Below are positions 5,110 to 49,683 of a DNA stretch of 64,000 nt, piece after piece. The notes under the pieces were generated by a model. That model did no database searches. It saw only the letters and a list, made by a program, of their open reading frames with translations, and had not been told where the DNA came from. Location: the sequence record SRR20825019_2740, one strand, 5' to 3'. The position numbers were made by a program, and so were the translations under genes. Position 1 is the stretch's first letter; every line of letters starts with the position of its first letter.

Positions 5110-5111
5110 TG

Positions 5112-11730: not shown

Positions 11731-12033
11731 GTTTACTCCAAAGAGAAGCCGTATTTAACCTTATTTTACAACAAAACGGGCCATTGTGATGCCGAATATT
11801 GTGCAGAATTCGTACAATTTTGTAATCCTACCGGTTTTGTGACAGTCCTGGACCCTGCCGCGAACCGCTCAGCAGTGTGCTTAGGGGCTTCTAGCGGGCA
11901 TCATAGAGTTGGTAAAGCGGCATGGGGGCATTCGTGCCAATTTACCGCCGGTGACAGTTTCTTTTACACTGTCCTCGCGCGTGACGGTGATCCATCGACT
12001 CCTCGATCTTTAAATTGGCTATGTCAGGATGCG

Positions 12034-12049
12034 TGGCCCAAAATGTGCA
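12034..12049 (+). promoter_or_regulatory. Candidate sigma-54 (-24/-12) promoter of the PEP-CTERM gene
   Basis: TGGCCCAAAATGTGCA has GG-N10-GC spacing like the consensus TGGCAC-N5-TTGCW, about 80 bp upstream of the start codon. Confidence 0.55.
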
Positions 12050-12130
12050 GCATGGTTTACTACATTGGTTATTAGTTGTTAAATTCAATGTTGGCTACCA
12101 AAATGTCTACTACCAAAAAGGAAGGTGGTT

Positions 12131-25388: not shown

Positions 25389-27203
25389 CTATTCCGATGT
25401 TTTTATGGGCAATGCCACGGAGGACGGGGTGTCTCCACCAAAGTAAACCCTGTTGGTGGCGACAAACGTATCCGAATCGCTGTATTCGTCTTTTCCGGTG
25501 TTGAGGTTCCGCGCCAGGCGTGGAAAGTTGCTGCTTGAAATGTGGAACTCGAGCCGGTGTCCTTTCCGGAAGCGATAGGCAATGGGCCTCATTTCCAGTT
25601 CAACCCGATAGATGCGGCCCGGTTCGACGGGGCTTGGGTTGTCGATACCGTTCCGGTAACGCAGGCGGACGACGCCATCCTGGAGGTTAAAGGCCCTGCC
25701 ATCCGGGTACTGGTCGACCATCTTGACGGTAAAATCCGTATCCTGGGCGTTGGTCGACACGTAGAGGACAACGTTGGCATTGCCAACCAATTCCATGTCC
25801 TGCTCCAGTGGGTCACTTGCGTGAACCAACACATCCTGACGTGATTTCAGTGGCCTCTGGTCGAGCGGCCCGGGTTTATCTTCCGGCCTGTAAGTACAGC
25901 AGATTGGCCCGCCGAGGGTGGGGACGGGATCTAAAGGGTCGTAGGTAAACTGTTCATACAACGGGCCACTTTGCTCAGGGGCGCTGTTTAGGTCCGCCTC
26001 CTTTACCAGGCGATTGCCCGGCATGAAATAGTGGCGTTGGTCGCTGGCATCGGCAGGCGGCCACTGCTCAGAGGTATTCCATTCCCCGGAATGGATCGAG
26101 TAATACTCGAAATCGGGTGGCAGGTCCGTTGGTTCGTCTTTCAGCCAATAATCAAACCAGTCGATGTAGGTTTGCCGGAAATCTTTGCCGGCGTAATCAA
26201 ACGACATCTCACCAATGGTGACTTCCCCGGGCTTCAGTTTTCCGGCGCCGCAATGCACGCCTGGTGCGATCAGTACAGGCTGGGACTTCGCTCGGGGATG
26301 GCGGGCGTTCTCTGCCATGTGTTCGGCCAGCTTGAAGGTGTTATGGGCCGTTTGGTCGAACCAGTCGTTGATATGCAGTGTGGCCACCGAGAACTCGTCG
26401 TCCGGGTGGGTGTAGCCTTCTTCGTCCCACCAGTTGTCCGTTAAGGGGTGGCGAATAATGTCATCGAAGCCAGTTTCGTAGGGAACGATCTTGTCTGCAA
26501 TCCCGGAAACGGGCAGGTGGGTCATATAGGTACGCATTCGCTCTTCGTAATCGTCGGGGCGTGGCGTTACCTTGAAATCCTTTGCGCCCTCAGCGGTGAA
26601 CCACCCTAATGAAGAAGCCAGGTTCAACACGCCGTTTTCGAACACGCCAAAATAGCCAAACGTGTCCTTGACCTTGCCGGCGGCACCGCCGGCGCCGGAC
26701 GCAATCATGGCGATGTGATTCGGGTGGTTGGCCGCGGCAAGTATGATCTGGCTTTCACCCAGGTAGGAGCATCCAAATGTTCCGATTTTGCCGGTTGACC
26801 AGGGCTGTTCAACCAACCATTCGATGGTGTCGTAGCCGTCTTGCTTTGCAGTCAAGTAGGGGCTCTTGTAACGACCCTCTGAGTAAAATCGGCCACGGAC
26901 ATGTTGTACGATCACGGCGTAGTTGTGCCTGACGAAGTGCCGGACGGTGCTGAATTCGATGCCGCCATAGGTGGTGCGAATGTATATAACCGGATGGCGT
27001 TTGTTTCCAAGCGGCCGGTATACGTCTGTTGCAAGCTTCACACCGTCGCGCATGGGAACCATGACATTGCGGGCCCGTTGCATGTTTTCGCGCATGGGCA
27101 TGGTGACATCGCCCAGCCACAGCTTTACGTCGTCTGCGCGATAGCCGAGCACGGCAAGGATGGCGATCAGGATCAGCGAACTGGTGATCAGGACGAATTT
27201 CAT
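25389..27203 (-). CDS. CocE/NonD family hydrolase/acyltransferase with N-terminal signal or anchor
   Basis: VPMRDGVKLATDVY, RGRF-x-SEG, GCSYLG nucleophile motif and SSSNFPR; hydrophobic N-terminus. Confidence 0.9.
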   Translation of the reverse strand: MKFVLITSSLILIAILAVLGYRADDVKLWLGDVTMPMRENMQRARNVMVPMRDGVKLATDVYRPLGNKRHPVIYIRTTYGGIEFSTVRHFVRHNYAVIVQHVRGRFYSEGRYKSPYLTAKQDGYDTIEWLVEQPWSTGKIGTFGCSYLGESQIILAAANHPNHIAMIASGAGGAAGKVKDTFGYFGVFENGVLNLASSLGWFTAEGAKDFKVTPRPDDYEERMRTYMTHLPVSGIADKIVPYETGFDDIIRHPLTDNWWDEEGYTHPDDEFSVATLHINDWFDQTAHNTFKLAEHMAENARHPRAKSQPVLIAPGVHCGAGKLKPGEVTIGEMSFDYAGKDFRQTYIDWFDYWLKDEPTDLPPDFEYYSIHSGEWNTSEQWPPADASDQRHYFMPGNRLVKEADLNSAPEQSGPLYEQFTYDPLDPVPTLGGPICCTYRPEDKPGPLDQRPLKSRQDVLVHASDPLEQDMELVGNANVVLYVSTNAQDTDFTVKMVDQYPDGRAFNLQDGVVRLRYRNGIDNPSPVEPGRIYRVELEMRPIAYRFRKGHRLEFHISSSNFPRLARNLNTGKDEYSDSDTFVATNRVYFGGDTPSSVALPIKTSE

Positions 27204-28048
27204 TCCGGTTTCAGGGTCTTCAAGTGATCCAGTTGTTTATTGGCCCAGTCTGTAATGGTGCCGATCAGGCGTTGTCGGTGCACTTCGATGGAGAAGATGT
27301 GCTTGGCATTGGGCCAGAAGACTTCCTCGATAATGGGTTCAAGGCCTTTGATGTCCATGGCAGAGGCGAACTGGCCAAGCTTGTTGTAGTGGTAGAGGGT
27401 TTGGCTGGTAAACACGGCGAACACCCGGCCATCTTTTTCCACCAGGCTCTCGAAGCAACGGTCCATATCGTCTTCATTGGGCTCATCCCGCAAGTCCATG
27501 GGGGAGCTAAGCAGCGAGTGTTCACCGCTGGTGTTCTGTTTCAGCCTGCGGGAGACAATTTTATGGATATTCAACCACTTGTTAGGGTTTGTCAGCTTCC
27601 GGAGCAGTTCTCGCTTCGCGAAACCTTCGTCCTGCCGGGACACCGGGTCCAGAAGGATAAGCCCCTTGATGGATGGGTCCTGGGCGCAGAGTTTGATGCC
27701 GTTGTCGGCACCTGAACACAAACCGAAGATCAGCAGGGGCCTGGAGCCATAGAGCTTTTCGAGGGATTTCTTCATGAATGACCAGTCGAGGGCCACTGAT
27801 TCCCGGTTGGTCATGGTTTCGTGGGCTGGGGAGTCCCCCTTGCCAGACAGGTCCACCCGCAACGCGATATAACCCAGTTCCGCGAGTTGGCGGCCGAGCA
27901 GTACATTCAGCCGATAGGGCTCCGCCCGGTGGGACAGGCCGGCGTTCAGCAGCACCACAATGGGGCTGTTGAAGGTGTCTTCAGGCTCGGAGAGAACGCC
28001 AATGCCGTGCTGGTGTTCCCCATAGGTGAATATCCGTTCCTTGATCAT
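27200..28048 (-). CDS. Alpha/beta hydrolase fold protein (XrtA-associated hydrolase-1-like)
   Basis: LLNAG-x2-HR-x2-P-x-R, DLSG-x-GDS, GLCSGAD elbow, H-x-F near the C-terminus; ATG 28048 overlaps the upstream TGA. Confidence 0.78.
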   Translation of the reverse strand: MIKERIFTYGEHQHGIGVLSEPEDTFNSPIVVLLNAGLSHRAEPYRLNVLLGRQLAELGYIALRVDLSGKGDSPAHETMTNRESVALDWSFMKKSLEKLYGSRPLLIFGLCSGADNGIKLCAQDPSIKGLILLDPVSRQDEGFAKRELLRKLTNPNKWLNIHKIVSRRLKQNTSGEHSLLSSPMDLRDEPNEDDMDRCFESLVEKDGRVFAVFTSQTLYHYNKLGQFASAMDIKGLEPIIEEVFWPNAKHIFSIEVHRQRLIGTITDWANKQLDHLKTLKPE

Positions 28049-28804: not shown

Positions 28805-31800
28805 TCATGACTGAAACAGCTTCCTCCAGAACGGCTTCTTGGCGACCGGTGTTTTTGACTGGCTTGGTTCTGAGGGCACCTCATTGATAAGTCTTTCAAG
28901 GTCCGCAACAAGTCCGGCAAAGGTCTCCTTGAGCGACTGTACCGTCTCTGAATCAACAGAAGCCTCGTTGTAGTCAAACACGCCAATGAAACCACCAGGC
29001 TGGATCCGCACCCAGTACTCCACCGGGTATTCGGTGTTCAGCCGGGGCAGGTCCAGTTGCCTGAGCGCCAGGTCGGCAATGGAGGTTGGCCGGTTGCGGA
29101 TGTCCTGAAAAGCAAAGCTGGCCTGGACAAACTCCGGAAACAGCTCCCTCTCGGCAGGCGTGTTACGGACGATATCAGCGTAGGTCACCGTCTGATGGTC
29201 CAGTGTTTCCCTGAGTTGGTCGCTCAGGCTGGCAATGCGCTCCCGGAAGCTGGACGATGGCGCCTGAAGCAAACAGGGAATGGTGGTCACAAAGCTACCA
29301 ATCAGGTTGATCACGTCGGCGCGTTGACGGCCGGACGTGGGCACGCCAAGCACAATACGGTTGTCTTTGTGCGACCGGGAGATGGTCTCCGCGAACAGGC
29401 AGAACAGGATCTCGTGAAGTTTGAGCCCGAGTTCATTACCCACCTTTTCCACCATCGCCAGGCTTGCTTCCGGGAAGTTCAGGGTCTCCCGGGCACATTG
29501 GTTGGGTTTGCCGTAGTTCTCGTTCTCGCGGGCCTCGGATTCCAGGACGCCGGCAATCTTGGCCCTGTGGTAATCGACATCCTCTGTCGACGCACCTTTT
29601 TCAATTGACCACTCAGCGTAATCCCGGAACTCGAACGCCAGTTTGTTGGCTTTTTCCCGTTCCGTATTGCTTTGTACCAGATAGGCGTCCTCCAGTTCCT
29701 TGAGGAAGATATCAAACGACCAGCCATCGAAGACCAGTTGATGTGGCACGAACACGTAGTGGTAGCGGGCATCGCCCAGCACAAACAGCGTGGAGCGGAA
29801 CAGCGGCCGGTCGAGCACCTTGAAGGGTTTGAACGCCAGGTCCCGTGAGCGTTTCAGCGCCGTTTGCTCGGGGTTATCCTCGCCGGTTAGGTCCACAACA
29901 TCGAGTACGGGGACCTGCTTCACTGGCAGGATGCCTTGCTGGTAGCGGCTATCCACCTGGGTAATGACCGTTCGCAGCGCGGTCTGGCGCTCGAAAACCT
30001 TGATCAGGCTACGGGTGAACGTATCAATATCAAGGTTGCCTTCGAGGAACCAGGACGCGGGCAGGTTGTTACACACGTTGTCCGGGTAGGACAGCTGCCG
30101 CAGCAGCAGCCGGGTCTGTTCATGGCTCAGCAAGCGCCGCTGGGCCGTGGGCAGATCCGCCGGTGAGTCTTCGTGCCCGGCGGAGGCCGGCGTGCTGTGG
30201 GAGACTTTCTCGGCGATTTCACTCAGGCTGAGCCCGACGATGTCTTCCGGGGTCAGTTTGATGCCGGTCTGGCTCTCTATCCTGCGGATGGCCTGCAGCG
30301 CGAGCAATGAGTGCCCGCCCAGGCTGAAGAAGTTGTCCTCGCGTACAATCCGGGACTTGGAATTGAGTACGTCGGACCAGACATCGGCAATCATCTCTTC
30401 GGTCTGGTTTGCCAAGGCGGAGGCCTTGAGAATACTGGACTCTCGAAGTTCCGGTTTGGGCAGGCGCCGCCGGTCCATCTTGCCGCTAGGGCTCAGGGGT
30501 ATGCTATCGATGGCAATGATGTATTGAGGGATCATGTACGCTGGTAGCAGTTTTCGAAGTTCCTTGCGGATGCTCACCACATTGGGCACGTCTCCGGATT
30601 CCGAAACCACACAGCCAACGATGCGTGCGTCGCCCGGTGCCAGTTCCCAGACATACGCGCAGGCGGATTTAATGTCAGCGCAGGCGGCGAGGGCGGACTC
30701 AATATCACCCAATTCAATGCGGTAGCCGCGAACCTTCACCTGATCGTCCATGCGGCCCAGATGCTGAAGGTTGCCATCGGGAGTCCATTTCGCCAGATCT
30801 CCGGTGGCATACAGCCTTCCGTGGAGGGGATGGTCAATGTACTTCTCTGAGGTGAGATCGGGCCGATTGTGGTAGCCCGTTGCCAGCCCAAGGCCGCCGA
30901 TGTACAGCTCGCCAGGGCAGGACAGGGGCACCGGATTGCGTTCCCGGTCAAGAATGTGCACCTGGGTATTGTGGATAGGTTTGCCGATGGAGATCAGTTT
31001 GTCGGTCAGGCGCAATGGGTGGCAAGTGGACCAGACGGTGGTTTCCGTCGGACCATACATATTCCACAGTTCGTCCAGGCACCCGAGCAGATCCCGCACC
31101 AGATCCTGGGGCAGTGGTTCCCCGCCACAGAGCCCCTTCATCCTGACCCCATCCTGCCGCCAGTCGGTATCCAGCAGCATGCGCCAGGTTGCCGGGGTTG
31201 CCTGCATGATTGATATCTGGTGATCGAGAATCAGCCGGCGCAGTTTTTCACCGTCCTTTACGCTGTCCTTGTCGGCGATCACGGTTGTGGCGCCCTGAGT
31301 CAGGGGTAACAAAAGCTCCAGGAAGGAGATGTCGAAGGAGAAGGTGGTGACCGCCAGAAGCCGGTCATTGGCTGTGCAACCGGGTTTGTCCGACATGCTC
31401 TCAAGAAAGTTAATCAGAGCCCGGTGAGGAACCAGCACGCCCTTGGGTTTTCCGGTGGAGCCGGAGGTGTAGATAATATAGGCCGTTTGCTCCGGGTCGA
31501 TTCTTACCGGTGGCACGGGGGACGCTTCGGCTGACGCCGGTTCAATTGCCTCATTGATATCGACTTTGAGGAGGTTCACGCCGGCGATGGCCGCAGGCGT
31601 CTGTGAGTCGACGATGACAGCGGAAGCTTCCGAGTCCTCAATCATGTACTGCAATCGAGCCTCCGGAAAGTCCGGGTCCAGGGGCAGGTAAATCGCACCC
31701 AGCTTGAGGATGCCGACAATAGCGGCCAGGGCAGCGTCCGAGCGCTCGACACAGACCGCCACCGTGTTGCCGGCCGCAATACCTTGGTTGGCAAGGCTGG

Positions 31801-33310
31801 CGGCCACGGCATTACTGCGTTCATCGAGCTGCTGGTAGGTCCAGCTACGGTCACCGAACGCGCATGCGAAGGCATCGGGCGTGGCTGAGACATGGTGCTG
31901 CAGGGCGTCGATGACCGTTCCATGGGGCATGTCGCGCTGGGTGTCGTTGGCGCGCTGAACCACGTTCGGTTCCTGTTCCGCGAGGGCAATGCTACCCACG
32001 GCAATCTCAACATCCGCCGTGGCGGTCGCCAGTATCCTTTCCAGGGCCTCAAGCCAGGACACGATGGTGGCCTCGCTGAACAATGCCGTGGAGTAAGTGG
32101 CTTCGATGGTGAGGCTGTCGGACGACGGCAGGATGTTCAGGAACATCTCGAAGTTCTCCGCTGCGCGGGGCACGGTCCGGACTTTGCCTTCTATATCGCC
32201 GAACTGGATGGACTCCAGGGGCTGATCGATGTTGAAAATGGTATTGATCAGCGGAACACGGGTGCGGTCGACGTTGATCGCTTCTATGAGCTTGCCGAAC
32301 GTGAAGTTTGAATGCTCGGAGGCATTGAGCACTTCGGACTTGACCTGTTTGCACAGCTCAGAAAACCGCGTGTCCGGGGTCAGTTGGGCCCGGATTGGCA
32401 GCAGGTGAACCATGTGGCCAACTTGCTTCAGTCGGTTCTGTGTGGCCTGGCCTGCAACGGGGAGCCCCACCACGATGTCGTCGCTGGATGTCAGGCGATG
32501 CAGCAGCACAAAATAGCTCGCCAACACCATGTTCACCATGCTGACTTTCATAGCGGCGGCTGCCTTGGGCAGGCGTTTGGCAAGCTCCGGGTCTATCCGG
32601 TAATCCAGCCGCGTCGCCTCAAAGGTTCGAAAATGGGGCCGCGGGTAATCCAGGGGCAGGTCCAGGTTTGGCGGCACTTCGGCAAAACGATCGATCCAGT
32701 AGTCGTTGTCGATGTTGCTGATTTCTTTGGAATCCACCATTTCCGCGTAATCGAAGAAGGAGATATCCGCTCCGCTGTCGTCCGATTGAGCGCGTTGACT
32801 GCCATAGGATTCGGCCAGTTCGGTCAGCATCAGTCCGATTGACCAGCCGTCACAGACAATATGATGGGCGGCCAGAACCAGTTCGTGGGTGTTGCTGTCG
32901 AGCTTCATCAGCCATGCGAACAGGAGAGGGCCTTCCTCCAGATTCATGGGGGAGATGGCGATGTTCTTCCAGAGATCTCTAATGGCAGCTTCCTGTTCGC
33001 TCGGAGTGCCGCCATTGAGGTCTTCCACCTCCAGTTGGAATGTGGAGGTGTCGTGCAGGCAGATTTCCGTGCCGTTCCTGGAAAACGTTGCCCTCAGAAT
33101 ATCGTGCTTTGCGATAAGGTCATCAAAACACTGGCGGAGCAGATTGACATCAAGGTTGCCGGAAAGCTTAACGGATACGGCCTCGTTAAAGGCGGTGTTG
33201 GCAACGTCGCTAAGCTGGGCAGAGGCGATGATTTCCCTTTGCGGCCCTGTTGCGGGAGCAACCCGCAACAGTTCACCACCGGCGAACGGATTGAAGCTGG
33301 CGGAACTCAT
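28805..33310 (-). CDS. Non-ribosomal peptide synthetase, C-A(Gly)-T-C*
   Basis: C domain HHIVCDG; A domain YTSGSTGKPKG, YGPTETT, TGD; T domain FFSLGGHSL; terminal C-like domain HQLVFDG; no thioesterase. Confidence 0.93.
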   Translation of the reverse strand: MSSASFNPFAGGELLRVAPATGPQREIIASAQLSDVANTAFNEAVSVKLSGNLDVNLLRQCFDDLIAKHDILRATFSRNGTEICLHDTSTFQLEVEDLNGGTPSEQEAAIRDLWKNIAISPMNLEEGPLLFAWLMKLDSNTHELVLAAHHIVCDGWSIGLMLTELAESYGSQRAQSDDSGADISFFDYAEMVDSKEISNIDNDYWIDRFAEVPPNLDLPLDYPRPHFRTFEATRLDYRIDPELAKRLPKAAAAMKVSMVNMVLASYFVLLHRLTSSDDIVVGLPVAGQATQNRLKQVGHMVHLLPIRAQLTPDTRFSELCKQVKSEVLNASEHSNFTFGKLIEAINVDRTRVPLINTIFNIDQPLESIQFGDIEGKVRTVPRAAENFEMFLNILPSSDSLTIEATYSTALFSEATIVSWLEALERILATATADVEIAVGSIALAEQEPNVVQRANDTQRDMPHGTVIDALQHHVSATPDAFACAFGDRSWTYQQLDERSNAVAASLANQGIAAGNTVAVCVERSDAALAAIVGILKLGAIYLPLDPDFPEARLQYMIEDSEASAVIVDSQTPAAIAGVNLLKVDINEAIEPASAEASPVPPVRIDPEQTAYIIYTSGSTGKPKGVLVPHRALINFLESMSDKPGCTANDRLLAVTTFSFDISFLELLLPLTQGATTVIADKDSVKDGEKLRRLILDHQISIMQATPATWRMLLDTDWRQDGVRMKGLCGGEPLPQDLVRDLLGCLDELWNMYGPTETTVWSTCHPLRLTDKLISIGKPIHNTQVHILDRERNPVPLSCPGELYIGGLGLATGYHNRPDLTSEKYIDHPLHGRLYATGDLAKWTPDGNLQHLGRMDDQVKVRGYRIELGDIESALAACADIKSACAYVWELAPGDARIVGCVVSESGDVPNVVSIRKELRKLLPAYMIPQYIIAIDSIPLSPSGKMDRRRLPKPELRESSILKASALANQTEEMIADVWSDVLNSKSRIVREDNFFSLGGHSLLALQAIRRIESQTGIKLTPEDIVGLSLSEIAEKVSHSTPASAGHEDSPADLPTAQRRLLSHEQTRLLLRQLSYPDNVCNNLPASWFLEGNLDIDTFTRSLIKVFERQTALRTVITQVDSRYQQGILPVKQVPVLDVVDLTGEDNPEQTALKRSRDLAFKPFKVLDRPLFRSTLFVLGDARYHYVFVPHQLVFDGWSFDIFLKELEDAYLVQSNTEREKANKLAFEFRDYAEWSIEKGASTEDVDYHRAKIAGVLESEARENENYGKPNQCARETLNFPEASLAMVEKVGNELGLKLHEILFCLFAETISRSHKDNRIVLGVPTSGRQRADVINLIGSFVTTIPCLLQAPSSSFRERIASLSDQLRETLDHQTVTYADIVRNTPAERELFPEFVQASFAFQDIRNRPTSIADLALRQLDLPRLNTEYPVEYWVRIQPGGFIGVFDYNEASVDSETVQSLKETFAGLVADLERLINEVPSEPSQSKTPVAKKPFWRKLFQS

Positions 33311-36300
33311 GGGCGGCCCACCTCCACATATGCGCCTTTATTGTCAGGGTCTTCAATGAAGTAAGCGGGCTCTCCTTTCTCATTTTTTCCCAGCCTGGCA
33401 CCTGCGGGAATGCTGCTGTTGCCACTCAGATACTTCTTGGCCGCCACTTGGTCGCCCTCGAGCAGGCCGTTGACGATGAGGTTCGCCAGGGCCGACTTGA
33501 ACGCCTGCAGTATTTTCTTCACATCTTCGGTGGAGTGCTGGGTTGTCAGGAAGTTTGGACGGTACTGCTGGATGTGGATGCCGTCGAGCGTCATCGACAG
33601 GAACAACAGGTGCCCCCAATGAGACGTCGGGGGAATGGAAATGTAGAACAGCGAGGCAAACTCCTCGAAGCTGACATTGGACTTCAGTTGCTCGATGAAG
33701 GCCTTGGCTTCCCTCGCCATGGCGGTGGTTTTTTCTTCCAGCGCCGGGTAAATCGAATCGCCGTCTTCCTTGATCTTGGTAAGTACCGCTTTGGCAACTG
33801 CCAGGGCCAGCGGGTGCCGCACAAAGGTTCCGGCGAAGAAGGTCACACCCTGCTCGGGGATGGAATCATCGCCAAACTCCCAATAGCCCCCGTCCATCGC
33901 GTCCAGGTACTTGGCTTTGCCGGCGATAATGCCGATGGGATAGCCGCCGCCGACGACCTTGCCGTAGGTCATCATGTCGGCATCAACATCGAAGCGTTTG
34001 CGAATACCGCCGGGGCCAACGCGGAAGCCGGTCACTACCTCATCGAGGATCAGCGCGACGCCGTTTTCTTTCGTAATCCTGCGGATTTCCTGGATGTATT
34101 CCTTGCTGTGGAACTGGGGCTTCCTGCTTTGCACCGGTTCCACCAGTACAGCGGCGATCTCGTCACCCAGTTTTCGGATCTCATCCAGGCTGCTCTGCTC
34201 GCCCCAGGGCAGGAGTATCATGTTTGAGGTTGCTTCCCTGGGCACTCCTGGTGCGGCGGGAAGAGCCTTGTGGTCTTTACCGACCCGCATGACCACTTCA
34301 TCGTGAATGCCGTGGTAGGAGCCTTCGAACGCCACGACCTTGGTGCGCCCGGTGACCGTGCGGGCAACCCGGAGAGCGCCCACGTTTGCCTCAGAGCCTG
34401 TACAGGCAAAGGTGCATCGCTCATTACCTGTAAGTTCACAGAAGAGTTCAGCGACTTCTCCCGCCAATGGGGATTGCGGACCGGTTTCCACGCCGCGGTC
34501 AATCTGGGCCTTAGCAGCGTTGGAAATGAAGTCCGGTGAATGCCCGAACAGAATCGGGCCGAAGCCGTTGGAGGTATCAATAAGCTCGTTGCCGTCGATA
34601 TCCCAGAGTTTCGATCCTTTCGACTCCACTGTGACAATCGGGAAAATGACTTCTTTCCAGCCCGGATTGAAGCCGGAAACACTTCTCGGATCGGCCAGGT
34701 GTTTCCTGTGCTTCTGCGTGTAGCTCTTGGACCCTGCGTATTTTTCCTGGTATTTCGTCATCAACCGGTCAATCCATTCCCGCTGTGCGGAGGTGACTTC
34801 GGTATTGGTTTTCTCCCGTGTGATACGAGTGCCAGGGGTGTGGGCCGGTTTACTGGGTGTGTCGTCGGCGCTCTCGTTGGCGCTTGCCCGTTCCTTGTTT
34901 GCAGCAGCAGCGGGCGCTGGCGTGGATGCGGCTGCCTGTTGGGTTTGCGGAACACTCTGCGCCGTTGAAGCCCCCTGTCGCCCAAGGGCCTGAAGTTGCA
35001 TCTGCATAATCTGCAACTGCGCATTCACGATATCCTGTATAAGGCCACCGGAAGTGGGCATTGCAGTGCTGAAATCAACACCGGAGGGCATGGACATTTG
35101 GCTGCCATCAGCAGGCTGAGGCTGACCAGCTGCCTCCTGAGACGGTGGTGCGGCCTGGGTGACGACCTCGGGCTCAACCTGGGAGGCAATGAACTCCGAG
35201 ATCAATTCCAGGGAGGTGTATTCTTCCACAAGATGTCTGAATGTGATCCCGAGTTTAAACTGCCGCTCCAATGCAGTCGCGACCTGGGTAAGCAACAACG
35301 AATCCAGACCAACCTCACTGAAGTGTGAGGCCGGGTCTGCGTCGCCCAGTTCATACCCCGACACGTCTTCAATGATGGCCATGACATCGGCGCGGATTTT
35401 TTCGGAATGCTGTTTTGAGTCCATTTTAACGTCCTGTGTAACCGGGGTTGCCGGATTAGCCAGATGAGACAGTTGCGAAGCTGCCGCCGTTGAAGGGGCG
35501 ACGCTGTTGGTCATGTTTGCGGGGTCGTTGTTGACCGGGCCGAGCCAGAACGAGTCGTCCGAGAACGCGTAGCCCGGGAGCCGTTCCTTGCAAACCCACA
35601 GCCCCTCAAAGTAACGGTTCCAGTCCAGGGCGTGCCCATCGACCCAGAGCTGGCCAATACTGCGGTAAATGTCATCTTCCGCGTTCTCGTCGGTGCCCTT
35701 GTTGGTGAGAGCGGGATAGGCGTGAATACCTTCAAGCTCCCGGTGGCTATTCGCCAGGTTGACCAGGGTGTTGCCGGGCCCGACTTCCAGGAGACTGATT
35801 CGTTCGCCATCGTTTTCATGACGAAGGCTGAGAGCCTGCAACGCGCTGGAAAACAGCACCGGGTTCCTGAGCTGTTGCGACCAGTACCGGGGCGACATCG
35901 CCTCCTCATCCGTCAGCAGTGCGCCCGTCATGGTTGAATAGATAGGGATGGAGGGCGCCTGCCGTTGAATCGTGGATACGAATGCTTCGAACTCGGGAAC
36001 AATGGGGTCCATCATCGACGAGTGGAACGCATGGCTGGTCTGCAGGATAGTGCTGGCGATCTTCCGCTCGGACAATTCGGCGGAGATCGCCTTGATGGCC
36101 TCCTGCTCACCCGAGAGCACCATAAGGCCAGGCGCATTCACCGCAGCCACCTCAGCCCGCTGGCCAACGAGTTCTTCGATGTCATCCGGGTTTGACCGCA
36201 CAATGAGCATTTTTCCGGCCGGCATGCTTTGCATGAGGGCGCCCCGGGTGGCAACCAGAGCCACGGCGTCCTCAAAACTGAAGATGCCTGCAAGGGCAGC

Positions 36301-39300
36301 GGCGGCGAATTCGCCAATGCTGTGCCCGATCAGAAACGAGGGCGCAACGCCATGCTCTTTCAGGTAGTTTGCCAGTCCGAATTCGAGCAGGAACAGGGCC
36401 GGTTGCACGAAGGAAGTCTGGTTGACCAGATTGTCATCGGCGTTCTGGTCGCCTTCGGCGAACAGGATGCCGCGTATGTCCACCCCACTGGTTTTCAGTA
36501 CGATCTTGCAACCGCGATCAAAGGTCTCCCGATAAGAGCTGGCGTTCTCATACAGCCACTTGCCCATATGTCTGGCCTGGGTACCCTGGCCAGAGAACAT
36601 AAAACCGACACTCTGGTTGGGGTTGTTACCAGCCTGGCCCTTGGCGAAGGATACACCCTGGCCGAGATTCTCCATGGCGGAGGGCAGGTCACCGCCGAAC
36701 ACGATCGCCCGATGATCGAAGTGCTTGCGACCGTGGATCGAGGTATGGGACACATTCGGCAGCAGGGCATCCTTCCGGTTGCTGAAGTAGTCGCAATACC
36801 GGGCGATTTGTCGCTCCAGTGAGGGCTTGCTCTTGGCCGATAGCAGTATCGGGAAACGGCGCTCTGGAGTGATCTCTTTAGGCAGCTCGGGCGCCTGTCC
36901 GGGAACGTATTCCTCCAGGATGACGTGGGCATTGGTACCGCCCACACCAAGAGAGGTAACCGCCGCCCGGCGGGGGGAGGGCAACTTCCAGGCCTCCACT
37001 GCCGTATTGACATAGAAATGGGACTTCTCCAGCTCCAGCTTCGGGTTTGCGGTCTGGAAAAACAATGTGGGCGGTATCTTGTTGTCACGGACGGCCAGAG
37101 TGGATTTAATCAGGCTAGCCAGGCCGGCGGCATGGATGGCGTGCCCGATGTTGGATTTAACAGAACCGATCGCGCAGGTTTTCTCCCGGGTATTCTCTGA
37201 GGAATAACAGCGCCTCAGTGACAACACTTCAATGGGGTCGCCCAGGGGCGTCGCAGTGCCGTGGGTTTCTATGAAACCCACGGAGGAAGGTTCGATGGCA
37301 GCGCGGGCAAGGGCATCCTTATAAACAGCCACTTGGCCGGCCACACTGGGTGCGGTGAAGCTGGCCTTCTGTTCGCCGTCGTTATTTACTGCATAGCCTT
37401 TGATGACGGCGTAGATAGTGTCGCCATCCCGTTCCGCCAGGTCTCGACGTTTCAGGACGATGGCGCCGGCACCGTCGTTGAACGTGGTTCCCGTGGCGTC
37501 CTGGTCGAAAGGCCTGCAATGGCCGTCTTTCGAGAGCATGCTGCCTTCCTGGTAGGCGTACCCGCGCTTCACTGGCGTTGAGATGGACACACCTGCGGCG
37601 ATGGCTTGCTCACATTGGCCGTTGTCGATCGCTTCACAGGCCTGTGCCACTGCGACGAGTCCCGTGGAACACGCCGTAAAGACATTGATGCTTGGGCCCT
37701 TCAGGTTCAACTTATAGGAGATGCGGGTGCTCAGCAGGTCGGGCTCGTTGGCGAGGCCACAGTTGAGAACACCGTAGCTATCAATAATCTCCTTATTTGG
37801 CAGAACATACTGCTGGTAATAACGAGCCCAGTTCATACCAGCGAACACGCCGGTGCGGTATTGGGCATCGCCCGGAGGAATGCCGGCGTCCTCAAGGGCG
37901 TGCCAGCTCAGTTCCAGGAGAATACGCTGCTGCGGATCCATCACCCGGGCTTCTATCGGTGAGATACCAAAGAACTTGGCGTCAAAGCGGTCGTAACCCT
38001 CGACAATACCCTTGGCTTTTACATACGCGGGATTGGAACGTTCTTCTGCACTGACGTCGGGGCTCAGTTCGTCATCGGTAAAGAAACTGACGGTTTCCTT
38101 GCCCGCAAGTAGGTTCTGCCAGTATTCATCCAGATTGTTGGCGCCGGGAAAGCGGCAGGCCATGCCAATGATGGCAAACTCGTTGTTGTTCCTGTCGCCG
38201 CGCCGCGCCGATGCTTCAGTGTCGTCAGCATTGGAACGGGTTGCAAAGAAATTCGCTTGCTGCTGGATCGTCGGGTGCTCGAACACAAACGTGGCACTGA
38301 GCTCAACCTCAAAGGTGCGTTCCAGCAGGGTTGCCAGTTTCAGGGCTTCTAGTGAGGTGCCGCCGGCATCCATGAAGTTGTCGGTATCTTCGACCGGGCG
38401 GTTCAGTATGGTGTTCCAGCTTTCCTGGATGCGGTCCTTGGTGACTCTGGAGGCCTGTGGGGCGTCTTTTGGCGCCGTAGCGTATGGGTCCGGAAGGCGG
38501 GCTTCATCCAGTTTGCCGTTCTTGTTCTTCGGCAATTCGGACACCTGGACAATAAAGTGTGGAATCATGTAGGCCGGGACAACCTCAGCCAACGCCTGGC
38601 GGACGGATTGTGTGCTGAAGCCCGATTCCGACACCAGGTAGGCGGCGAGTCGTTTCTGTCCTTGTGGTCCAATTCGAACAATGACCCGAGCCTCTGTGAC
38701 GAACTCAAGGTTGTTCAATTGGTACTCGATTTCACCTGGCTCGATGCGGTGCCCGTCGATTTTAACCTGCTTATCTATTCTGCCTAAATAATCGTAGCTA
38801 CCATCGTCGTTGAGTTGCGCCAGATCGCCTGTCCTGTAGCCGGTTCGCGACCGGCCGTCTTTGGCTTTCACCTGAATGAACTTCTCAGCGGTCAATTCCG
38901 GCCTGTTGAGGTAACCCAGTGCGAGGCCATCGCCGAAGGCAATGAGTTCACCGGTCTGATCTGGACCCTCTAGAATGTTCAGCTCTGAATCGACAAGAGC
39001 ACATTGGGTACCGGGAATGGGAAACCCAATAGGAATTCGCTTGATATCTTCCGGCAGCGGCCTGGGTATCGGGAATACGGTGGTAAACGTTGTATTCTCG
39101 GTGGGCCCATAGCCGTTGAACAGGGCAGTGTTGGGCAGGTGTTCGAGTGCTTTCCTCACATGTGGCACTGAAAGCGCTTCGCCTCCTGTCAATAACTGTT
39201 TAACAGGCTTGAGGTAGTCAGGGTATTCGGCGATGAACGTGTTAAACAGCGAGGCAGTAAGCCATAGAGTGCTGACATCACGCTCCAGGATAACGTCCCG

Positions 39301-39996
39301 GATGCAGTTGGGTGTCAGTACGCCGGTCTCTGGGTGTAGTACGCAGGTGCCACCATTGAGCAGGGGGCCCCAGAGTTCCAACGTGGAAGCATCGAAACTC
39401 AGGGCTGATAACTGAAGGAACGTCTGCTCTGGTGAAAATGATATGAAATCGGTGCTGGTGACCAGCCGAAGTATTGCGCGGTCGGGTACCACCACACCCT
39501 TAGGCTCTCCGGTCGAGCCGGAGGTAAACATGACATAGGCTGGCCGCTCGCTGTTTTCAGGGATATCCGGTATTTCCACGTTACTTTGCGGGGAATTACG
39601 GGTATTTATCCATGAAATATCAAGGTGATTAAGTAAATCAGATCCAGGAGCATTAATTCCAAACTTTGCAGATACAGCTTCAGTGATGAAATGTTGACGT
39701 TCTTTTGGGTAATTAGCGTCAATAAATACGTAATGAGCGCCACAAAAAAGTATACCCAATAAGTTGGCGCATAAGTCGGGGTGTCTTTCTGACGGAAGTA
39801 TGACCGAAGAGCCTTCTTCTACACCTGCTCTTGCCAACTCGCTGGCAATCCTCCGGGCTTTGTCGAATAATTCGGTATAGGTGAGTTTCTTCCAGGTCTG
39901 ATTGTCTCGCCACGCTACGGCGGTGCGACCGGGGTGGTGCTGAGCGACTTCAATAAAACGGGCGATGACGGTTTGTTGGCTACTGCTGGCGGTCAT
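33307..39996 (-). CDS. Hybrid NRPS/type I PKS, A(Val)-T-KS-AT-ACP-class III aminotransferase
   Basis: A domain FTSGSTGEPKG; T domain GGTSL; KS DPQQR, TACS, HGTAT, KSNIGH; AT GHSIGE and HAFHS; ACP GLDSL; aminotransferase DEVVTGFR and YGKVVGGG; ATG 39996 after AGGA. Confidence 0.93.
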   Translation of the reverse strand: MTASSSQQTVIARFIEVAQHHPGRTAVAWRDNQTWKKLTYTELFDKARRIASELARAGVEEGSSVILPSERHPDLCANLLGILFCGAHYVFIDANYPKERQHFITEAVSAKFGINAPGSDLLNHLDISWINTRNSPQSNVEIPDIPENSERPAYVMFTSGSTGEPKGVVVPDRAILRLVTSTDFISFSPEQTFLQLSALSFDASTLELWGPLLNGGTCVLHPETGVLTPNCIRDVILERDVSTLWLTASLFNTFIAEYPDYLKPVKQLLTGGEALSVPHVRKALEHLPNTALFNGYGPTENTTFTTVFPIPRPLPEDIKRIPIGFPIPGTQCALVDSELNILEGPDQTGELIAFGDGLALGYLNRPELTAEKFIQVKAKDGRSRTGYRTGDLAQLNDDGSYDYLGRIDKQVKIDGHRIEPGEIEYQLNNLEFVTEARVIVRIGPQGQKRLAAYLVSESGFSTQSVRQALAEVVPAYMIPHFIVQVSELPKNKNGKLDEARLPDPYATAPKDAPQASRVTKDRIQESWNTILNRPVEDTDNFMDAGGTSLEALKLATLLERTFEVELSATFVFEHPTIQQQANFFATRSNADDTEASARRGDRNNNEFAIIGMACRFPGANNLDEYWQNLLAGKETVSFFTDDELSPDVSAEERSNPAYVKAKGIVEGYDRFDAKFFGISPIEARVMDPQQRILLELSWHALEDAGIPPGDAQYRTGVFAGMNWARYYQQYVLPNKEIIDSYGVLNCGLANEPDLLSTRISYKLNLKGPSINVFTACSTGLVAVAQACEAIDNGQCEQAIAAGVSISTPVKRGYAYQEGSMLSKDGHCRPFDQDATGTTFNDGAGAIVLKRRDLAERDGDTIYAVIKGYAVNNDGEQKASFTAPSVAGQVAVYKDALARAAIEPSSVGFIETHGTATPLGDPIEVLSLRRCYSSENTREKTCAIGSVKSNIGHAIHAAGLASLIKSTLAVRDNKIPPTLFFQTANPKLELEKSHFYVNTAVEAWKLPSPRRAAVTSLGVGGTNAHVILEEYVPGQAPELPKEITPERRFPILLSAKSKPSLERQIARYCDYFSNRKDALLPNVSHTSIHGRKHFDHRAIVFGGDLPSAMENLGQGVSFAKGQAGNNPNQSVGFMFSGQGTQARHMGKWLYENASSYRETFDRGCKIVLKTSGVDIRGILFAEGDQNADDNLVNQTSFVQPALFLLEFGLANYLKEHGVAPSFLIGHSIGEFAAAALAGIFSFEDAVALVATRGALMQSMPAGKMLIVRSNPDDIEELVGQRAEVAAVNAPGLMVLSGEQEAIKAISAELSERKIASTILQTSHAFHSSMMDPIVPEFEAFVSTIQRQAPSIPIYSTMTGALLTDEEAMSPRYWSQQLRNPVLFSSALQALSLRHENDGERISLLEVGPGNTLVNLANSHRELEGIHAYPALTNKGTDENAEDDIYRSIGQLWVDGHALDWNRYFEGLWVCKERLPGYAFSDDSFWLGPVNNDPANMTNSVAPSTAAASQLSHLANPATPVTQDVKMDSKQHSEKIRADVMAIIEDVSGYELGDADPASHFSEVGLDSLLLTQVATALERQFKLGITFRHLVEEYTSLELISEFIASQVEPEVVTQAAPPSQEAAGQPQPADGSQMSMPSGVDFSTAMPTSGGLIQDIVNAQLQIMQMQLQALGRQGASTAQSVPQTQQAAASTPAPAAAANKERASANESADDTPSKPAHTPGTRITREKTNTEVTSAQREWIDRLMTKYQEKYAGSKSYTQKHRKHLADPRSVSGFNPGWKEVIFPIVTVESKGSKLWDIDGNELIDTSNGFGPILFGHSPDFISNAAKAQIDRGVETGPQSPLAGEVAELFCELTGNERCTFACTGSEANVGALRVARTVTGRTKVVAFEGSYHGIHDEVVMRVGKDHKALPAAPGVPREATSNMILLPWGEQSSLDEIRKLGDEIAAVLVEPVQSRKPQFHSKEYIQEIRRITKENGVALILDEVVTGFRVGPGGIRKRFDVDADMMTYGKVVGGGYPIGIIAGKAKYLDAMDGGYWEFGDDSIPEQGVTFFAGTFVRHPLALAVAKAVLTKIKEDGDSIYPALEEKTTAMAREAKAFIEQLKSNVSFEEFASLFYISIPPTSHWGHLLFLSMTLDGIHIQQYRPNFLTTQHSTEDVKKILQAFKSALANLIVNGLLEGDQVAAKKYLSGNSSIPAGARLGKNEKGEPAYFIEDPDNKGAYVEVGRP

Positions 39997-40205
39997 GACA
40001 AAACGTCCTGTTTGACAATCGTACCTATAAGATCCAATGAAGTGGCGCTGCAGCTTTTTTTTAAAACCCTTGGACATAAATGTCGATGGCTTTTAGGCTT
40101 TGCTATCCTTCATCATTAAAAAAATATAACAGTCTTTCTTTTCGATTGAAATGGAATTTGAAACAGCTTTCAGTTTCTAGTTAACCCTGATGCCGGTGGA
40201 AATGT

Positions 40206-40847: not shown

Positions 40848-41024
40848 TTCTCCCGCAATCGATCAGGTTGGACCAGTCTGTTGACAGTGCACATGGTAGT
40901 GCTTGCAGCTTTATTGCCCATGGAATATGGTAATTTTGTAATCAGGGAATTAGTAGAAGCAGGGTCCACCTTAACTAGCGCGATTCATGCGGGGCGTTGT
41001 GGATTGTTGAAACAGGAAGTCGCG

Positions 41025-41882
41025 ATGAGTTTATTTGATCTTTCCGGGCCGGAATCCATAAAAACCATTCCCTTTCCCACTGAACAGGACGGATTGCTTC
41101 CTTATATCCGTCGTCGTCAGCCTTTGTTGTTGAGTGGCATCGAGGAGTCTTTGCCGTTCATCCGGGACTGGAACTACGATTTTTTCAGAGAATCGCTTAA
41201 ATCCATTCGGATACAGCGACAGTCAGAAGACGGCATCTACCATTATCTGGGCTTCGAGCGCATCCCCATGGCGGATTTTGATGAGGTGATGCGCACAACC
41301 GGGAATGGCTATGCGCTTGAGCCGCTGAAAGGTCGCGGTGTTTCCGAGGACCTGCCAAACAGTGTTGCGGTCACGTTGCCGGCGTTCGTGCCTGAATCCC
41401 GTTTTCGGGTCTCGAATCTGTACATTGGGCCCGGGAAAAATAAATCGCTGTTGCACTATGACGAAACCCACAGCCTTCTGATGATGTTGGAAGGGCGCAA
41501 ACGATTCATTCTCTTTGCGCCGGATCAAAGCGATTGCATGTATCCATACAGCCCATTCAGTTTGCGGGCATTGTTGGAGAATCGGGTGGTGGACAGCAAG
41601 ATCGACTGCCAGAAGCTGGACCTGGAGGCATTCCCGAAATTGGGCAATGCAAAGGGCATTACCGGCTGGCTGGAAGAAGGGCAGGCACTTTTTATTCCCG
41701 CCGGCACCTGGCATTTCATTGAAGCGGAAGGTCGCAACGTGTCGGTCAACTACTTTTGGCTGCAGAACCGTGTCAGGCACTGGTTACAACAACCACTGCT
41801 TGATTTCTGGCTGAAACGGCGCGCCATTGATGTGCTGGACCAGCTTCGCAAGGTTAAACACAAGTTGTCTGCAGCCGCTTAG
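41025..41882 (+). CDS. Cupin-8/JmjC Fe(II)/2OG oxygenase
   Basis: LHYD, GRKRF-x-LF-x-P and G-x-ALFIP-x-G-x-WH motifs; ATG 41025 after AGGAAG. Confidence 0.85.
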   Translation: MSLFDLSGPESIKTIPFPTEQDGLLPYIRRRQPLLLSGIEESLPFIRDWNYDFFRESLKSIRIQRQSEDGIYHYLGFERIPMADFDEVMRTTGNGYALEPLKGRGVSEDLPNSVAVTLPAFVPESRFRVSNLYIGPGKNKSLLHYDETHSLLMMLEGRKRFILFAPDQSDCMYPYSPFSLRALLENRVVDSKIDCQKLDLEAFPKLGNAKGITGWLEEGQALFIPAGTWHFIEAEGRNVSVNYFWLQNRVRHWLQQPLLDFWLKRRAIDVLDQLRKVKHKLSAAA

Positions 41883-41896
41883 GAAACACGAATACT

Positions 41897-43033
41897 GTGG
41901 AACTAAGAGTTATCAGAACGGAGGAGGCATTCAACCAGATCAGACCACAATGGGACGAGTTGCTGTCGACTCTGGACCCTATTCCTCTACCATTGACTCA
42001 TGCTTGGCTGCAGGCTTGGTGGCGCGCCTTTTCGATCAATATGCAGTTGGAGTTCCGGTGTGTCTATATCGAGGGAGCCTTGGTCGGGGTTGCGCCACTT
42101 TTTCGGGTTCGTGAGCGTTATCGGGGAGTTCCGGTAACACTCCTGAAGCTTGCGGCCAACGGTCACACCCCCTATTCGTCCATCGTCGTTGATTCAGCGG
42201 TGATTGGTCGGGAAAGGGACGCAGTGTTGGGGTTGCTGACAAAGGTAGGTTGTGACGAAATCGGCCTCTTCTTCAAGATACACCAGAGCGGTGACCTGAA
42301 GCGCTTTCTGCAGGACCGCTCGATACCCGGGCACAATCGGGTCGGTGAAAAACCCAGCCTTTACACGCCTGTTATTCGCATTGACCAACCGTGGGAGGCC
42401 TTTTACCGGTCCCGGCCGAGGAAGTTGAAGAAAAGCCTCAACCATAAACTGAACCGGTTTGGAAAGAATGCCGCCTTTTCCATCCATGAAGAGACTATTT
42501 CAAGCCCCGATCAGGACACCGTCCGTGAGTTGGTAGAGATCTCCGCCAACAGCTGGAAGGCGACTGTTGGCAATGATTTGCGCTCGAATGAACGAAGTCG
42601 CCGGTTTCTGCACAATCTGATCGAATCGTTTGGGCCTACCGGTTTGTTGTCGGCCTGGATCATTCGCGATGGAGAGCGCCCGGTGGCGTTCGAAGTTCAC
42701 CTCAAGTACGACGACATTGTTTATCCCATACGTGCTGATTTTGACGAGTCTTATAAAGCCTATTCACCGGGCTCTGTTCTTGAGTACACGGCACTGAAGA
42801 GACTATTTGAGAACGGGTTGGTAAAAGAGTACTACACCTGTGCGGACGACTACTGGTATCTGAGTAACTGGACATCAGAGTACCAGTCATATTGCACCGT
42901 TGAGCTTTTTGGAAGTAGCCCAAAACTTCATCTGTTGTACCTGCTCGAATACCGACTCATACCCGTATTAAAGCGTTTTCTGGGGAAACGCGCCAAACAA
43001 CGCCGCCGTCCCGACGGACTGAAAGGAGAGTGA
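41897..43033 (+). CDS. GNAT-family acyltransferase (CelD/BcsL-like)
   Basis: W-x2-L, W-x2-AWW, GVAPL, SWK and YSPG-x-VL motifs. Confidence 0.8.
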   Translation: MELRVIRTEEAFNQIRPQWDELLSTLDPIPLPLTHAWLQAWWRAFSINMQLEFRCVYIEGALVGVAPLFRVRERYRGVPVTLLKLAANGHTPYSSIVVDSAVIGRERDAVLGLLTKVGCDEIGLFFKIHQSGDLKRFLQDRSIPGHNRVGEKPSLYTPVIRIDQPWEAFYRSRPRKLKKSLNHKLNRFGKNAAFSIHEETISSPDQDTVRELVEISANSWKATVGNDLRSNERSRRFLHNLIESFGPTGLLSAWIIRDGERPVAFEVHLKYDDIVYPIRADFDESYKAYSPGSVLEYTALKRLFENGLVKEYYTCADDYWYLSNWTSEYQSYCTVELFGSSPKLHLLYLLEYRLIPVLKRFLGKRAKQRRRPDGLKGE

Positions 43034-48136: not shown

Positions 48137-48188
48137 GGCCCTGGTCCTTTTCCTTATCGGGTCTTGTTCTGGATTCCTTGCCTGCTAT

Positions 48189-49562: not shown

Positions 49563-49683
49563 AACGGTTACAAATCCCTTTTTGTAATGGTGACGGTCTT
49601 GCGATCAATCCTCTAAACCCTGATTCTTAACCGAAGATTGACACTTTGCAATGATAGTGTTCGCTGTATTTCGGTTTCGCCAA

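Follow-up and report, generated by a model that had tools for sequence, protein, structure and literature searches.

A hybrid peptide-polyketide synthetase operon coupled to relatives of exosortase-associated hydrolases in a Marinobacter exopolysaccharide locus

The 64,000-nucleotide stretch of DNA from sequence record SRR20825019_2740, referred to here in its entirety as the window, carries an operon in which a hybrid assembly line of the nonribosomal peptide synthetase (NRPS) and polyketide synthase (PKS) type is coupled to a pair of alpha/beta-hydrolase genes, hydr2 and hydr1, related to those of exosortase A systems. The setting is a Marinobacter (salarius-like) exopolysaccharide (EPS) locus of the exosortase A (XrtA)/PEP-CTERM type, which extends over ~1 to 54.5 kb of the window, and the synthetase operon is placed between XrtA and glycan genes. 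The main added value of the analysis is the conserved link of this assembly line to an exosortase-type hydrolase pair and to polysaccharide loci. The explanation favored here, with moderate confidence, is that a valine-primed line builds an acyl unit that hydr1 and hydr2 would release and transfer onto a surface-polymer precursor made in the XrtA locus. Rather than a free antibiotic, the product is more likely to decorate the cell surface, most likely as an acyl group rich in amines that is handed to a surface glycan or into the exosortase pathway. An earlier note on this DNA had predicted the chemistry (Val, malonate, transamination, and Gly) for a span of 31020-39400. That span covers only the stretch between the two regions that hold the adenylation-domain codes, whereas the genes occupy 28805-40077 and the operon continues to 27200. 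Its genes are as follows, with A for adenylation, PCP for peptidyl carrier protein, KS for ketosynthase, AT for acyltransferase, ACP for acyl carrier protein, AMT for aminotransferase, C for condensation, and C* for a terminal condensation-like domain.

33307..40077, minus strand: P0001, hybrid NRPS-PKS of A-PCP-KS-AT-ACP-AMT order, intact open reading frame of 2256 aa from the first ATG
28805..33310, minus strand: P0002, NRPS of C-A-PCP-C* order, intact open reading frame of 1501 aa
28045..28788, minus strand: hydr2, alpha/beta-hydrolase-like relative of TIGR03101, GVRFG, with Arg108 at the nucleophile-elbow position
27200..28048, minus strand: hydr1, alpha/beta hydrolase related to TIGR03100, GLCSG with Cys111; His250 and Asp134

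These genes form a four-gene operon, because each gene either overlaps the next at its stop codon or is separated from it by 16 nt: the P0002 ATG overlaps the P0001 stop codon (ATGA), hydr2 starts 16 nt past the P0002 stop codon, and the hydr1 ATG overlaps the hydr2 stop codon (ATGA). A public protein identical to P0001 carries the name 'amino acid adenylation domain-containing protein [Marinobacter salarius]'; its start lies 27 residues into P0001, and this NCBI form comprises 2229 aa from Met28 at nt 39996. RNA-seq contigs from four libraries of one study lie on 28.1-40.1 kb at 95-100% identity, with none on 40.7-43.4 kb; the runs were chosen by this gene, the contigs do not show transcription, and they were counted neither for nor against any reading.

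The favored explanation builds on features that are observed directly, namely the domains and their motifs, the A-domain codes, the coupling of the genes, their conservation, and their context. Pfam assigns to P0001 an AMP-binding domain (residues 43-522), a PP-binding domain (548-610), KS (634-1006), Acyl_transf_1 (1159-1418), a second PP-binding stretch, and Aminotran_3 (1812-2116), and to P0002 Condensation (in two stretches), AMP-binding (470-944), and PP-binding (974-1028). The domains lie at the following positions.

38512..39951, minus strand: loading adenylation domain, code DALWLGGTFK, Val-type
38248..38436, minus strand: PCP1, GGTSL, Ser575
37060..38178, minus strand: ketosynthase, Cys803, His939, His979
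35824..36603, minus strand: acyltransferase, GHSIG (Ser1253) and HAFH (1349-1352), malonyl-type motif
35188..35391 (borders approximate), minus strand: ACP, GLDSL, Ser1593
33463..34734, minus strand: MycA-type class-III aminotransferase domain, pyridoxal phosphate (PLP) Lys2040
31973..33259, minus strand: first condensation domain of P0002, HHIVCDG (149-155)
30479..31903, minus strand: second adenylation domain, in P0002, code DILQLGMVWK, Gly-type
30227..30391, minus strand: PCP2, GGHSL, Ser1001
28871..30133, minus strand: terminal condensation-like domain C*, PHQLVFDGWS, with Gln1191 in place of the second His

The catalytic triad of the KS is complete, with Cys803 in TACSTG, His939 in HGTAT, and His979 in NIGH (Pfam ketoacyl-synt, 237.6 bits). 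In the AT, the GHS and HAFH motifs read in the earlier note are found as GHSIG at residue 1251 and HAFH at 1349, and HAFH, a motif of malonyl specificity, also occurs in the homolog from a second Marinobacter genome, G171. About 175 residues separate the end of the AT from the ACP serine. Families for ketoreductase (KR), dehydratase (DH), and enoylreductase (ER) domains were found neither in P0001 and P0002 (Pfam, E<=0.01) nor in the precomputed Pfam sets of the 120 best homologs, and the Aminotran_3 match stands behind the second PP-binding stretch; on both points the earlier description of the line was correct. The P0001 AMT matches the solved AMT of MycA (6kfm, 6kfu) with an E-value of 4.6e-114 and 385.1 bits, compared with 174.2 bits for the best glutamate-1-semialdehyde (GSA) aminomutase, and its PLP lysine (TYGK, Lys2040) aligns with that of MycA. 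These alignments are direct sequence evidence for placing the domain with the PKS-embedded transaminases that convert beta-keto to beta-amino groups. The domain that follows is a C domain with an HHIVCDG motif, which bears out the ACP-AMT-C junction proposed before.

The ten specificity-code positions of each A domain were placed by the A4 (FDxS), A5 (NxYGPTE), and A10 landmarks rather than by a specificity predictor, with GrsA numbering. They comprise residues 229, 230, 233, 272, 296, 298, 322, 330, 331, and 522 of P0001 (DALWLGGTFK) and residues 660, 661, 664, 703, 727, 729, 751, 759, 760, and 944 of P0002 (DILQLGMVWK), and when all A domains from the related loci are aligned with MAFFT, the code residues of both domains occupy the same columns. 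The two strings thereby reproduce exactly the codes given in the earlier note. In a 2025 survey of 2051 A domains, DALWIGGTFK is among the commonest codes of Leu-/Ile-/Val-activating domains and is placed with Val elsewhere, while DILQLGMIWK is given as a Gly code (PMC12283262); another paper gives DALWMGGTFK as a Val code (PMC3943440). With respect to these published strings, DALWLGGTFK agrees with both DALWIGGTFK and DALWMGGTFK, and DILQLGMVWK agrees with DILQLGMIWK, at 9 of 10 positions with one conservative change, so that the assignment of Val- and Gly-type signatures is upheld as far as these sources go. The exact strings DALWLGGTFK and DILQLGMVWK occurred in no paper found by the literature search. 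In the PDB, both A domains find their highest-scoring match in LgrA (6mfz and related entries), at 445.6 and 590.9 bits; its A-domain alignments were rejected as a test of specificity, the likeness being only at the general A-domain level.

Both codes are invariant in the orthologous loci L001, L003, L004, L016, and L017, and the second is also invariant in L002, L007, and L018, where the first falls outside the cut contigs. The close orthologs with unchanged codes come from Marinobacter, Saccharospirillum, Ketobacteraceae, and metagenome-assembled genomes of Pseudomonadales, with 46-91% protein identity. More distant versions (Woeseiaceae, Nitrococcus, Panacagrimonas) carry other codes and extra modules, and a Gly-type module is often still the last before the hydrolases. 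In the G171 synthetase, likewise, the starter code is Pro-like (DVQFIAQVVK), one more module is present, and a terminal C* is missing; its last module is of the Gly type and is followed by hydr2 and hydr1.

Because the line contains a condensing KS, a malonyl-type AT, no reductive domain, a MycA-like AMT, and a normal C domain, its collinear product would be a 3,4-diamino-5-methylhexanoyl-Gly thioester on PCP2, a prediction that is sound but unproven. A MycA-type aminating module primed by an alpha-amino acid would thus give a vicinal (3,4-) diamino acid, and the name of this acid, 'beta gamma-diamino', and 'aminostatine' were found in no paper by the literature search. All premises of the earlier chemical reading that can be tested on the sequence hold. 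What that reading overlooked is C*, the hydrolase pair, and the XrtA/PEP-CTERM setting, and it is these three features that have changed the view of what the unit is probably for.

Chemical reasoning suggests that the free 4-amino group of a Val starter, lying four atoms from the thioester, tends toward lactam formation; capping of the Val amine may therefore come first. The candidates that may carry out this step are the products of three neighboring genes, encoding a weak GNAT match (40206-40847), a FemAB-like protein, and a formyltransferase-like protein. This consideration also bears on whether the chain is the one drawn above. The loading domain A1 might activate another branched residue, the starter might be N-formylated, N-acetylated, or N-aminoacylated, or the chain might leave the ACP as a 5-isopropyl lactam, in which case the Gly module would act on something else. 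In favor of such a different chain are codes that are one residue off the published ones and that, as exact strings, appear in none of the papers found, the conservation of GNAT, FemAB-like, and formyltransferase-like genes beside the synthetase (L001, L003, G171), and, again on chemical grounds, the ease with which 4-aminoacyl thioesters cyclize. It is nonetheless distinctly unlikely: code positions 1 and 10 hold Asp and Lys, in keeping with an alpha-amino acid, orthologs down to 46% identity show no change in the codes, and a complete C-A-PCP module is conserved, which speaks for onward transfer of the chain.

Downstream of PCP2, the C* domain carries the motif HQLVFDG, in which the second His of the canonical HHxxxDG is not present. 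Aligned with PDB entries, the Gln takes the place of the second, catalytic His in the C domains of bacitracin synthase 3 (9rde) and 5u89; from a 'special condensation domain' (8z0q), too, the His pair is missing at the HHxxxDG position. The Gln is kept in 7 of 7 sequences, comprising the window and six orthologs down to 39% identity.

The only NCBIfam matches of the two hydrolases are to TIGR03101, 'hydrolase 2' (hydr2), and TIGR03100, 'hydrolase 1, exosortase A system-associated' (hydr1). Judged by their scores, they are diverged relatives of these families and not members of them. A bona fide pair is found in locus L026 (274 and 277 bits), which shares with the window the order of hydr2 followed by hydr1, the Arg and Cys elbows, and the overlapping frames; the elbows themselves read GVRFG (hydr2) and GLCSG (hydr1) in the window and GLRSG and GLCDG in L026. 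Cys111 and His250 of hydr1 are invariant in 15 of 15 sequences, with Asp134 nearly so, and Arg108 of hydr2 is invariant in 8 of 8. A hydr1-hydr2 complex was predicted with a score of 0.91, while the best of three controls reached 0.03; of 78 solved complexes 51 come up to that mark, as do 2 of 108 mismatched pairs, and neighboring genes taken blindly pass in 7 of 44 cases. The prediction runs agree in at least 88% of contacts, the predicted local distance difference test (pLDDT) value of the partner is at least 89, and the predicted interface takes in residues 246-256 of hydr1, beside His250. The prediction thus supports binding, with the two proteins modeled as a heterodimer. The folds found with the hydr1 model (pLDDT 86.9) were all those of generic esterases and lipases, the CurM thioesterase ranking 23rd, and gave no lead to a function beyond 'alpha/beta hydrolase'; sequence searches of the PDB with hydr1 and hydr2 gave weak generic matches. 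No signal-peptide-like N-terminus was seen by eye on either hydrolase, and for this reason release in the cytoplasm is proposed.

The coupling of the synthetase to the hydrolase pair recurs across many taxa, in most cases next to polysaccharide genes. A scan with the AMT domain gave 18 loci, of which 15 have enough downstream DNA to be assessed (L002, L015, and L018 end too early), and in 13 of these 15, as well as in G171, the synthetase is followed by a hydr2-hydr1 pair. An exosortase adjoins this cassette in L001, L003, L004, and G171, and genes for polysaccharide export, a flippase, or a PEP-CTERM-type deacetylase flank it in L012, L016, and L017. One homolog, P0122 (2640 aa), has GT2 glycosyltransferase domains fused to an A-PCP-KS-AT-ACP-AMT line, with 43% identity in the ACP-AMT part. 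Among 41 relatives, the AMT cassette was found in two (G171 and G195) and an XrtA-like gene in 31; in the sampled Marinobacter genomes the corresponding counts are 1/25 and 21/25. In G171 the flanking genes are 55-87% identical to those of the window and the cassette occupies the same slot, while the synthetase is only 36% identical (L027 3047-17724). In G001, PrsK, PrsR, and PrsT are 98-100% identical to those of the window and there is no cassette; the different exosortase beyond PrsT (in L029 14937-18228) is 28% identical to window 43931-45430 and lies on the opposite strand. The G001 homologs of an aldose epimerase (L029 5808-6730) and of PrsR (10819-12188) are each present in two overlapping pieces, which may be frameshifts or assembly errors. 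Because the same slot holds other synthetase codes (G171) or no cassette (G001), the cassette region seems to be a strain-variable part of the locus, like O-antigen loci, and such differences among related strains suggest surface chemistry that varies at the strain level.

In canonical exosortase A systems the hydrolase pair keeps different company. The PLP decarboxylase TIGR03099 scores above cut-off in 17 of 151 sampled gammaproteobacterial genomes, a tally that takes in the unpublished genome G147; the likewise unpublished G045 is one of the 151 and has no such match. In L026, which comes from G155, the decarboxylase lies beside the acyl-CoA ligase TIGR03098, and divergent from them are hydr2, hydr1, and the acyltransferase TIGR03694. 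The TIGR03694 gene (L026 13963-14955, N-acyl amino acid synthase type) follows hydr2 and hydr1 in the same direction, and because of this position the pair may serve different acyl donors. Neither TIGR03099 nor TIGR03098 was found in any of five cassette genomes, and the AMT had no match in five canonical genomes, four of which have hydr1_PEP. Both cassette genomes among the relatives, G171 and G195, contain hydr1, which was not found in any of three Marinobacter genomes with XrtA and no cassette. The pattern fits an either/or partnership of the hydrolase pair with the assembly line or with the ligase and decarboxylase, and in loci of this type the assembly line would take the place of the acyl-CoA ligase and the PLP decarboxylase of the canonical systems. 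Craig, Cherry, and Brady in 2011 reportedly connected PEP-CTERM systems with N-acyl amino acid synthases. Haft 2006 (PMC1569441) contains none of the words ligase, decarboxylase, hydrolase, and acyl carrier. A literature search returned no account of such an assembly line at exosortase loci or of the function of hydrolase 1/2, and for exosortases together with NRPS/PKS systems the only papers returned dealt with N-acyl amino acid synthases, with antiSMASH, or with surveys of genomes (among them PMC11631085, PMC2907700, PMC8233155).

From the protein sequences and gene order we infer the substrates, the order of steps, the mode of release, and the acceptor in the favored explanation, which would run as follows. 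A1 would load L-Val on PCP1, and the KS would condense it with malonyl-ACP to give 4-amino-5-methyl-3-oxohexanoyl-ACP, the 3-keto group of which the MycA-type AMT would turn into an amine. The C domain would then join this acyl group to Gly on PCP2, yielding 3,4-diamino-5-methylhexanoyl-Gly-S-PCP. The Val amine may be capped at the outset, and the products of co-conserved genes may afterward methylate or hydroxylate the unit. The chain would leave its carrier through the hydr1/hydr2 heterodimer and not through a thioesterase domain, with hydr1 providing a Cys-His-Asp set and acyl transfer through the Cys, hydr2 acting as a partner with Arg at the nucleophile position, and C* perhaps helping. 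Acyl transfer in the cytoplasm would place the unit on a surface-polymer precursor, e.g., on an amino sugar or hydroxyl of a lipid-linked EPS repeat, so that the polymer would gain amino groups, much as teichoic acids do through D-alanylation by Dlt.

Several observations weigh against this explanation. The hydrolases score far below the NCBIfam cut-offs (66 versus 168.45 and 80.4 versus 202.75 bits), and the canonical families are themselves labeled 'hypoth_equivalog', with a single paper found to name TIGR03100. L008 and L013 encode a related synthetase and show no hydrolase pair in 4.5-6 kb of downstream DNA. G002 and G004 give only weak exosortase-like matches (20.6 bits in G004), and in G005 and G006 the exosortase genes lie away from the cassette. 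The genome samples are small, their members are related to one another, and the absence counts come from relatives and from the genomes of the related loci, so that a ligase or decarboxylase may lie elsewhere in the window's own genome. C* lacks the catalytic His, which leaves its role in the line a guess, and the free 4-amine could cyclize and release the chain early.

The cassettes of G005 and G006 that are not beside an exosortase would also be expected if the product were a free, diffusible small molecule whose position in an EPS locus is incidental. Such a molecule might be a linear diamino-acyl-glycine hydrolyzed off by hydr1/hydr2, or a cyclic variant in which the 3-amine attacks the Gly thioester to form a seven-membered diazepanedione, perhaps with the help of C*. 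Secreted metabolites are the usual products of NRPS-PKS lines, terminal C-like domains and alpha/beta hydrolases are known release devices, and an exported CocE/NonD peptidase is encoded after the operon in Marinobacter and Saccharospirillum. This reading is rather unlikely, given that the operon has no transporter gene typical of metabolite clusters, that the cassette stands among polysaccharide genes in unrelated taxa, that it occupies the same XrtA-to-glycan slot in a second Marinobacter despite 36% synthetase identity, that one homolog is fused to GT2 domains, and that the release enzymes are relatives of exosortase-associated hydrolases.

The attachment to a surface polymer favored here could also serve the exosortase itself. 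The presence of XrtA and a PEP-CTERM protein in one locus, together with a predicted product that bears two primary amines, raises the idea that a glycan- or lipid-fixed product supplies the amine acceptor when exosortase A cleaves PEP-CTERM proteins, in the manner of sortase with the cross-bridge amine of lipid II. Three FemAB-like proteins in the window agree with it, as does the canonical hydrolase pair, which travels with a ligase and an enzyme of the diaminopimelate (DAP)-decarboxylase family that would be a possible source of an amine-bearing acyl group. These arguments are purely circumstantial, some cassette genomes have no adjacent exosortase, and XrtA does not need the cassette, as the Marinobacter counts given above indicate; this role is accordingly considered improbable. 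A more far-reaching version, an equally long shot, is that the assembly line and the Cys/Arg heterodimer together replace the ligase/decarboxylase/hydrolase set, both arrangements delivering a carrier-bound, amine-bearing acyl group to a lipid-linked polysaccharide repeat, where the grafted amine would be the acceptor to which exosortase A passes PEP-CTERM proteins. If this were true, the variable A-domain codes across taxa would represent strain-specific 'linker chemistries' of the cell surface.

The genes around the operon include candidate tailoring and capping functions as well as the exosortase system itself.

25389..27203, minus strand: CocE/NonD-family (S15) hydrolase with a hydrophobic N-terminus, found after the cassette in L001, L003, and L004 only
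24530..25351, minus strand: TIGR04325-family methyltransferase, candidate tailoring enzyme, found with the Val/Gly cassette in L001, L003, L004, L016, and L017
23470..24438, minus strand: JmjC-like protein, candidate hydroxylase, found with the cassette in L001, L003, L016, and L017
40206..40847, plus strand: divergent 213-aa protein, candidate N-capping enzyme, weak GNAT match (21.3 bits), conserved in L001 and G171
40881..41882, plus strand: Cupin_8/JmjC protein
41897..43033, plus strand: Acetyltransf_6 (FemAB-like GNAT) protein
43038..43925, plus strand: formyltransferase-like protein, Formyl_trans_N
43931..45430, minus strand: exosortase A (XrtA) fused to an EpsI domain, 229.7 bits (cut-off 208)
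45440..51816, minus strand: PrsT (tetratricopeptide repeat protein), PrsR (sigma-54 response regulator), and PrsK (histidine kinase), above NCBIfam cut-offs
12125..12745, plus strand: PEP-CTERM protein with C-terminal VPEPSSF, a hydrophobic stretch, and a basic tail

The GNAT, FemAB-like, and formyltransferase-like genes beside the synthetase are conserved in L001, L003 (3 of 4 genes), and G171. An RNA contig from run X11, derived from a 95-99% identical strain, joins 40058 to 40530 and skips 471 bases that take in intergenic sequence and the beginning of the gene for the 213-aa protein, which is probably a strain difference. XrtA lies 15 kb from the hydrolase pair, and the NCBIfam scores of its Prs neighbors are 658.4 (cut-off 300) for PrsK, 669.6 (502.6) for PrsR, and 433.6 (312.2) bits for PrsT. 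The PEP-CTERM protein scores 20.4 bits in Pfam, just below the cut-off of 20.7, and its motif is clear by eye. The locus also encodes glycosyltransferases, a Wzy-like ligase, a flippase, deacetylases, a pyruvyl transferase, and a sugar aminotransferase. Three Acetyltransf_6 (FemAB-like) proteins (2-778, 565-1755, and 41897-43033) and two ATP-grasp proteins (3934-6287) are found within it, and they may point to additional decoration of the glycan with aminoacyl or peptide groups. Just past the tailoring genes, a 516-aa protein (21578-23128, minus strand) contains two golvesin_C stretches, TSP3 repeats, and a lipoprotein-like N-terminus, and is also conserved beside the cassette in G171 with 60% identity.

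Viewed as a whole, the locus presents an exosortase-type hydrolase pair that is hard-wired to an assembly line with a predictable product, and through this link the EPS or the PEP-CTERM proteins of culturable Marinobacter strains can be searched for a specific compound. Among known systems, MycA/ItuA of mycosubtilin and iturin biosynthesis (AMT structures 6kfm, 6kfr, and 6kfu) has the same series of KS, ACP, and class-III AMT followed by C-A-PCP, and the same logic, in which a beta-keto group is converted to a beta-amino group before an amide bond is formed with the next amino acid. MycA receives its fatty-acid primer by way of an acyl ligase and relies on a malonyl transferase in trans. The line in the window, in contrast, would take an alpha-amino acid primer through a true A domain, has a cis AT, and divides the AMT and C domains between separate, coupled proteins; its predicted product is a vicinal diamine and not a beta-amino fatty acid, and release and genomic context differ as well. 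McyE of microcystin biosynthesis, with its ACP-AMT-C-A-PCP-C architecture, is similar in having an AMT after the ACP followed by C-A-PCP-C, but acts mid-chain on a long polyketide and has no amino-acid starter, hydrolase pair, or exosortase context. Statine-type modules combine an amino acid, a malonate, and a KR to form a gamma-amino-beta-hydroxy acid, and thus also join an amino acid and one malonate across a hybrid NRPS/PKS interface; in the window an AMT takes the place of the KR, which would give a 3-amino rather than a 3-hydroxy group.

LgrA of linear gramicidin biosynthesis starts its chain with formyl-Val and then Gly, and the formyltransferase-like gene near the operon recalls this system, which differs in its fused F domain and in having no PKS or AMT part. 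The canonical exosortase A set, as represented by L026, differs in that the window lacks the ligase and decarboxylase, TIGR03694 was not seen there, and a hybrid NRPS-PKS is part of the operon. The Dlt system attaches an amino acid to a carrier protein by means of an adenylating enzyme, and an anionic polymer of the cell surface finally receives the aminoacyl group. The Panacagrimonas cassettes are directly preceded by genes for an MBOAT protein and a 659-aa AMP-binding protein (L011 1583-4813, L012 1098-4835) that recall DltB and DltA, whereas no MBOAT was found in the window, the unit there would be a tailored, dipeptide-like chain, and its transfer to a polymer is proposed from the context of the locus.

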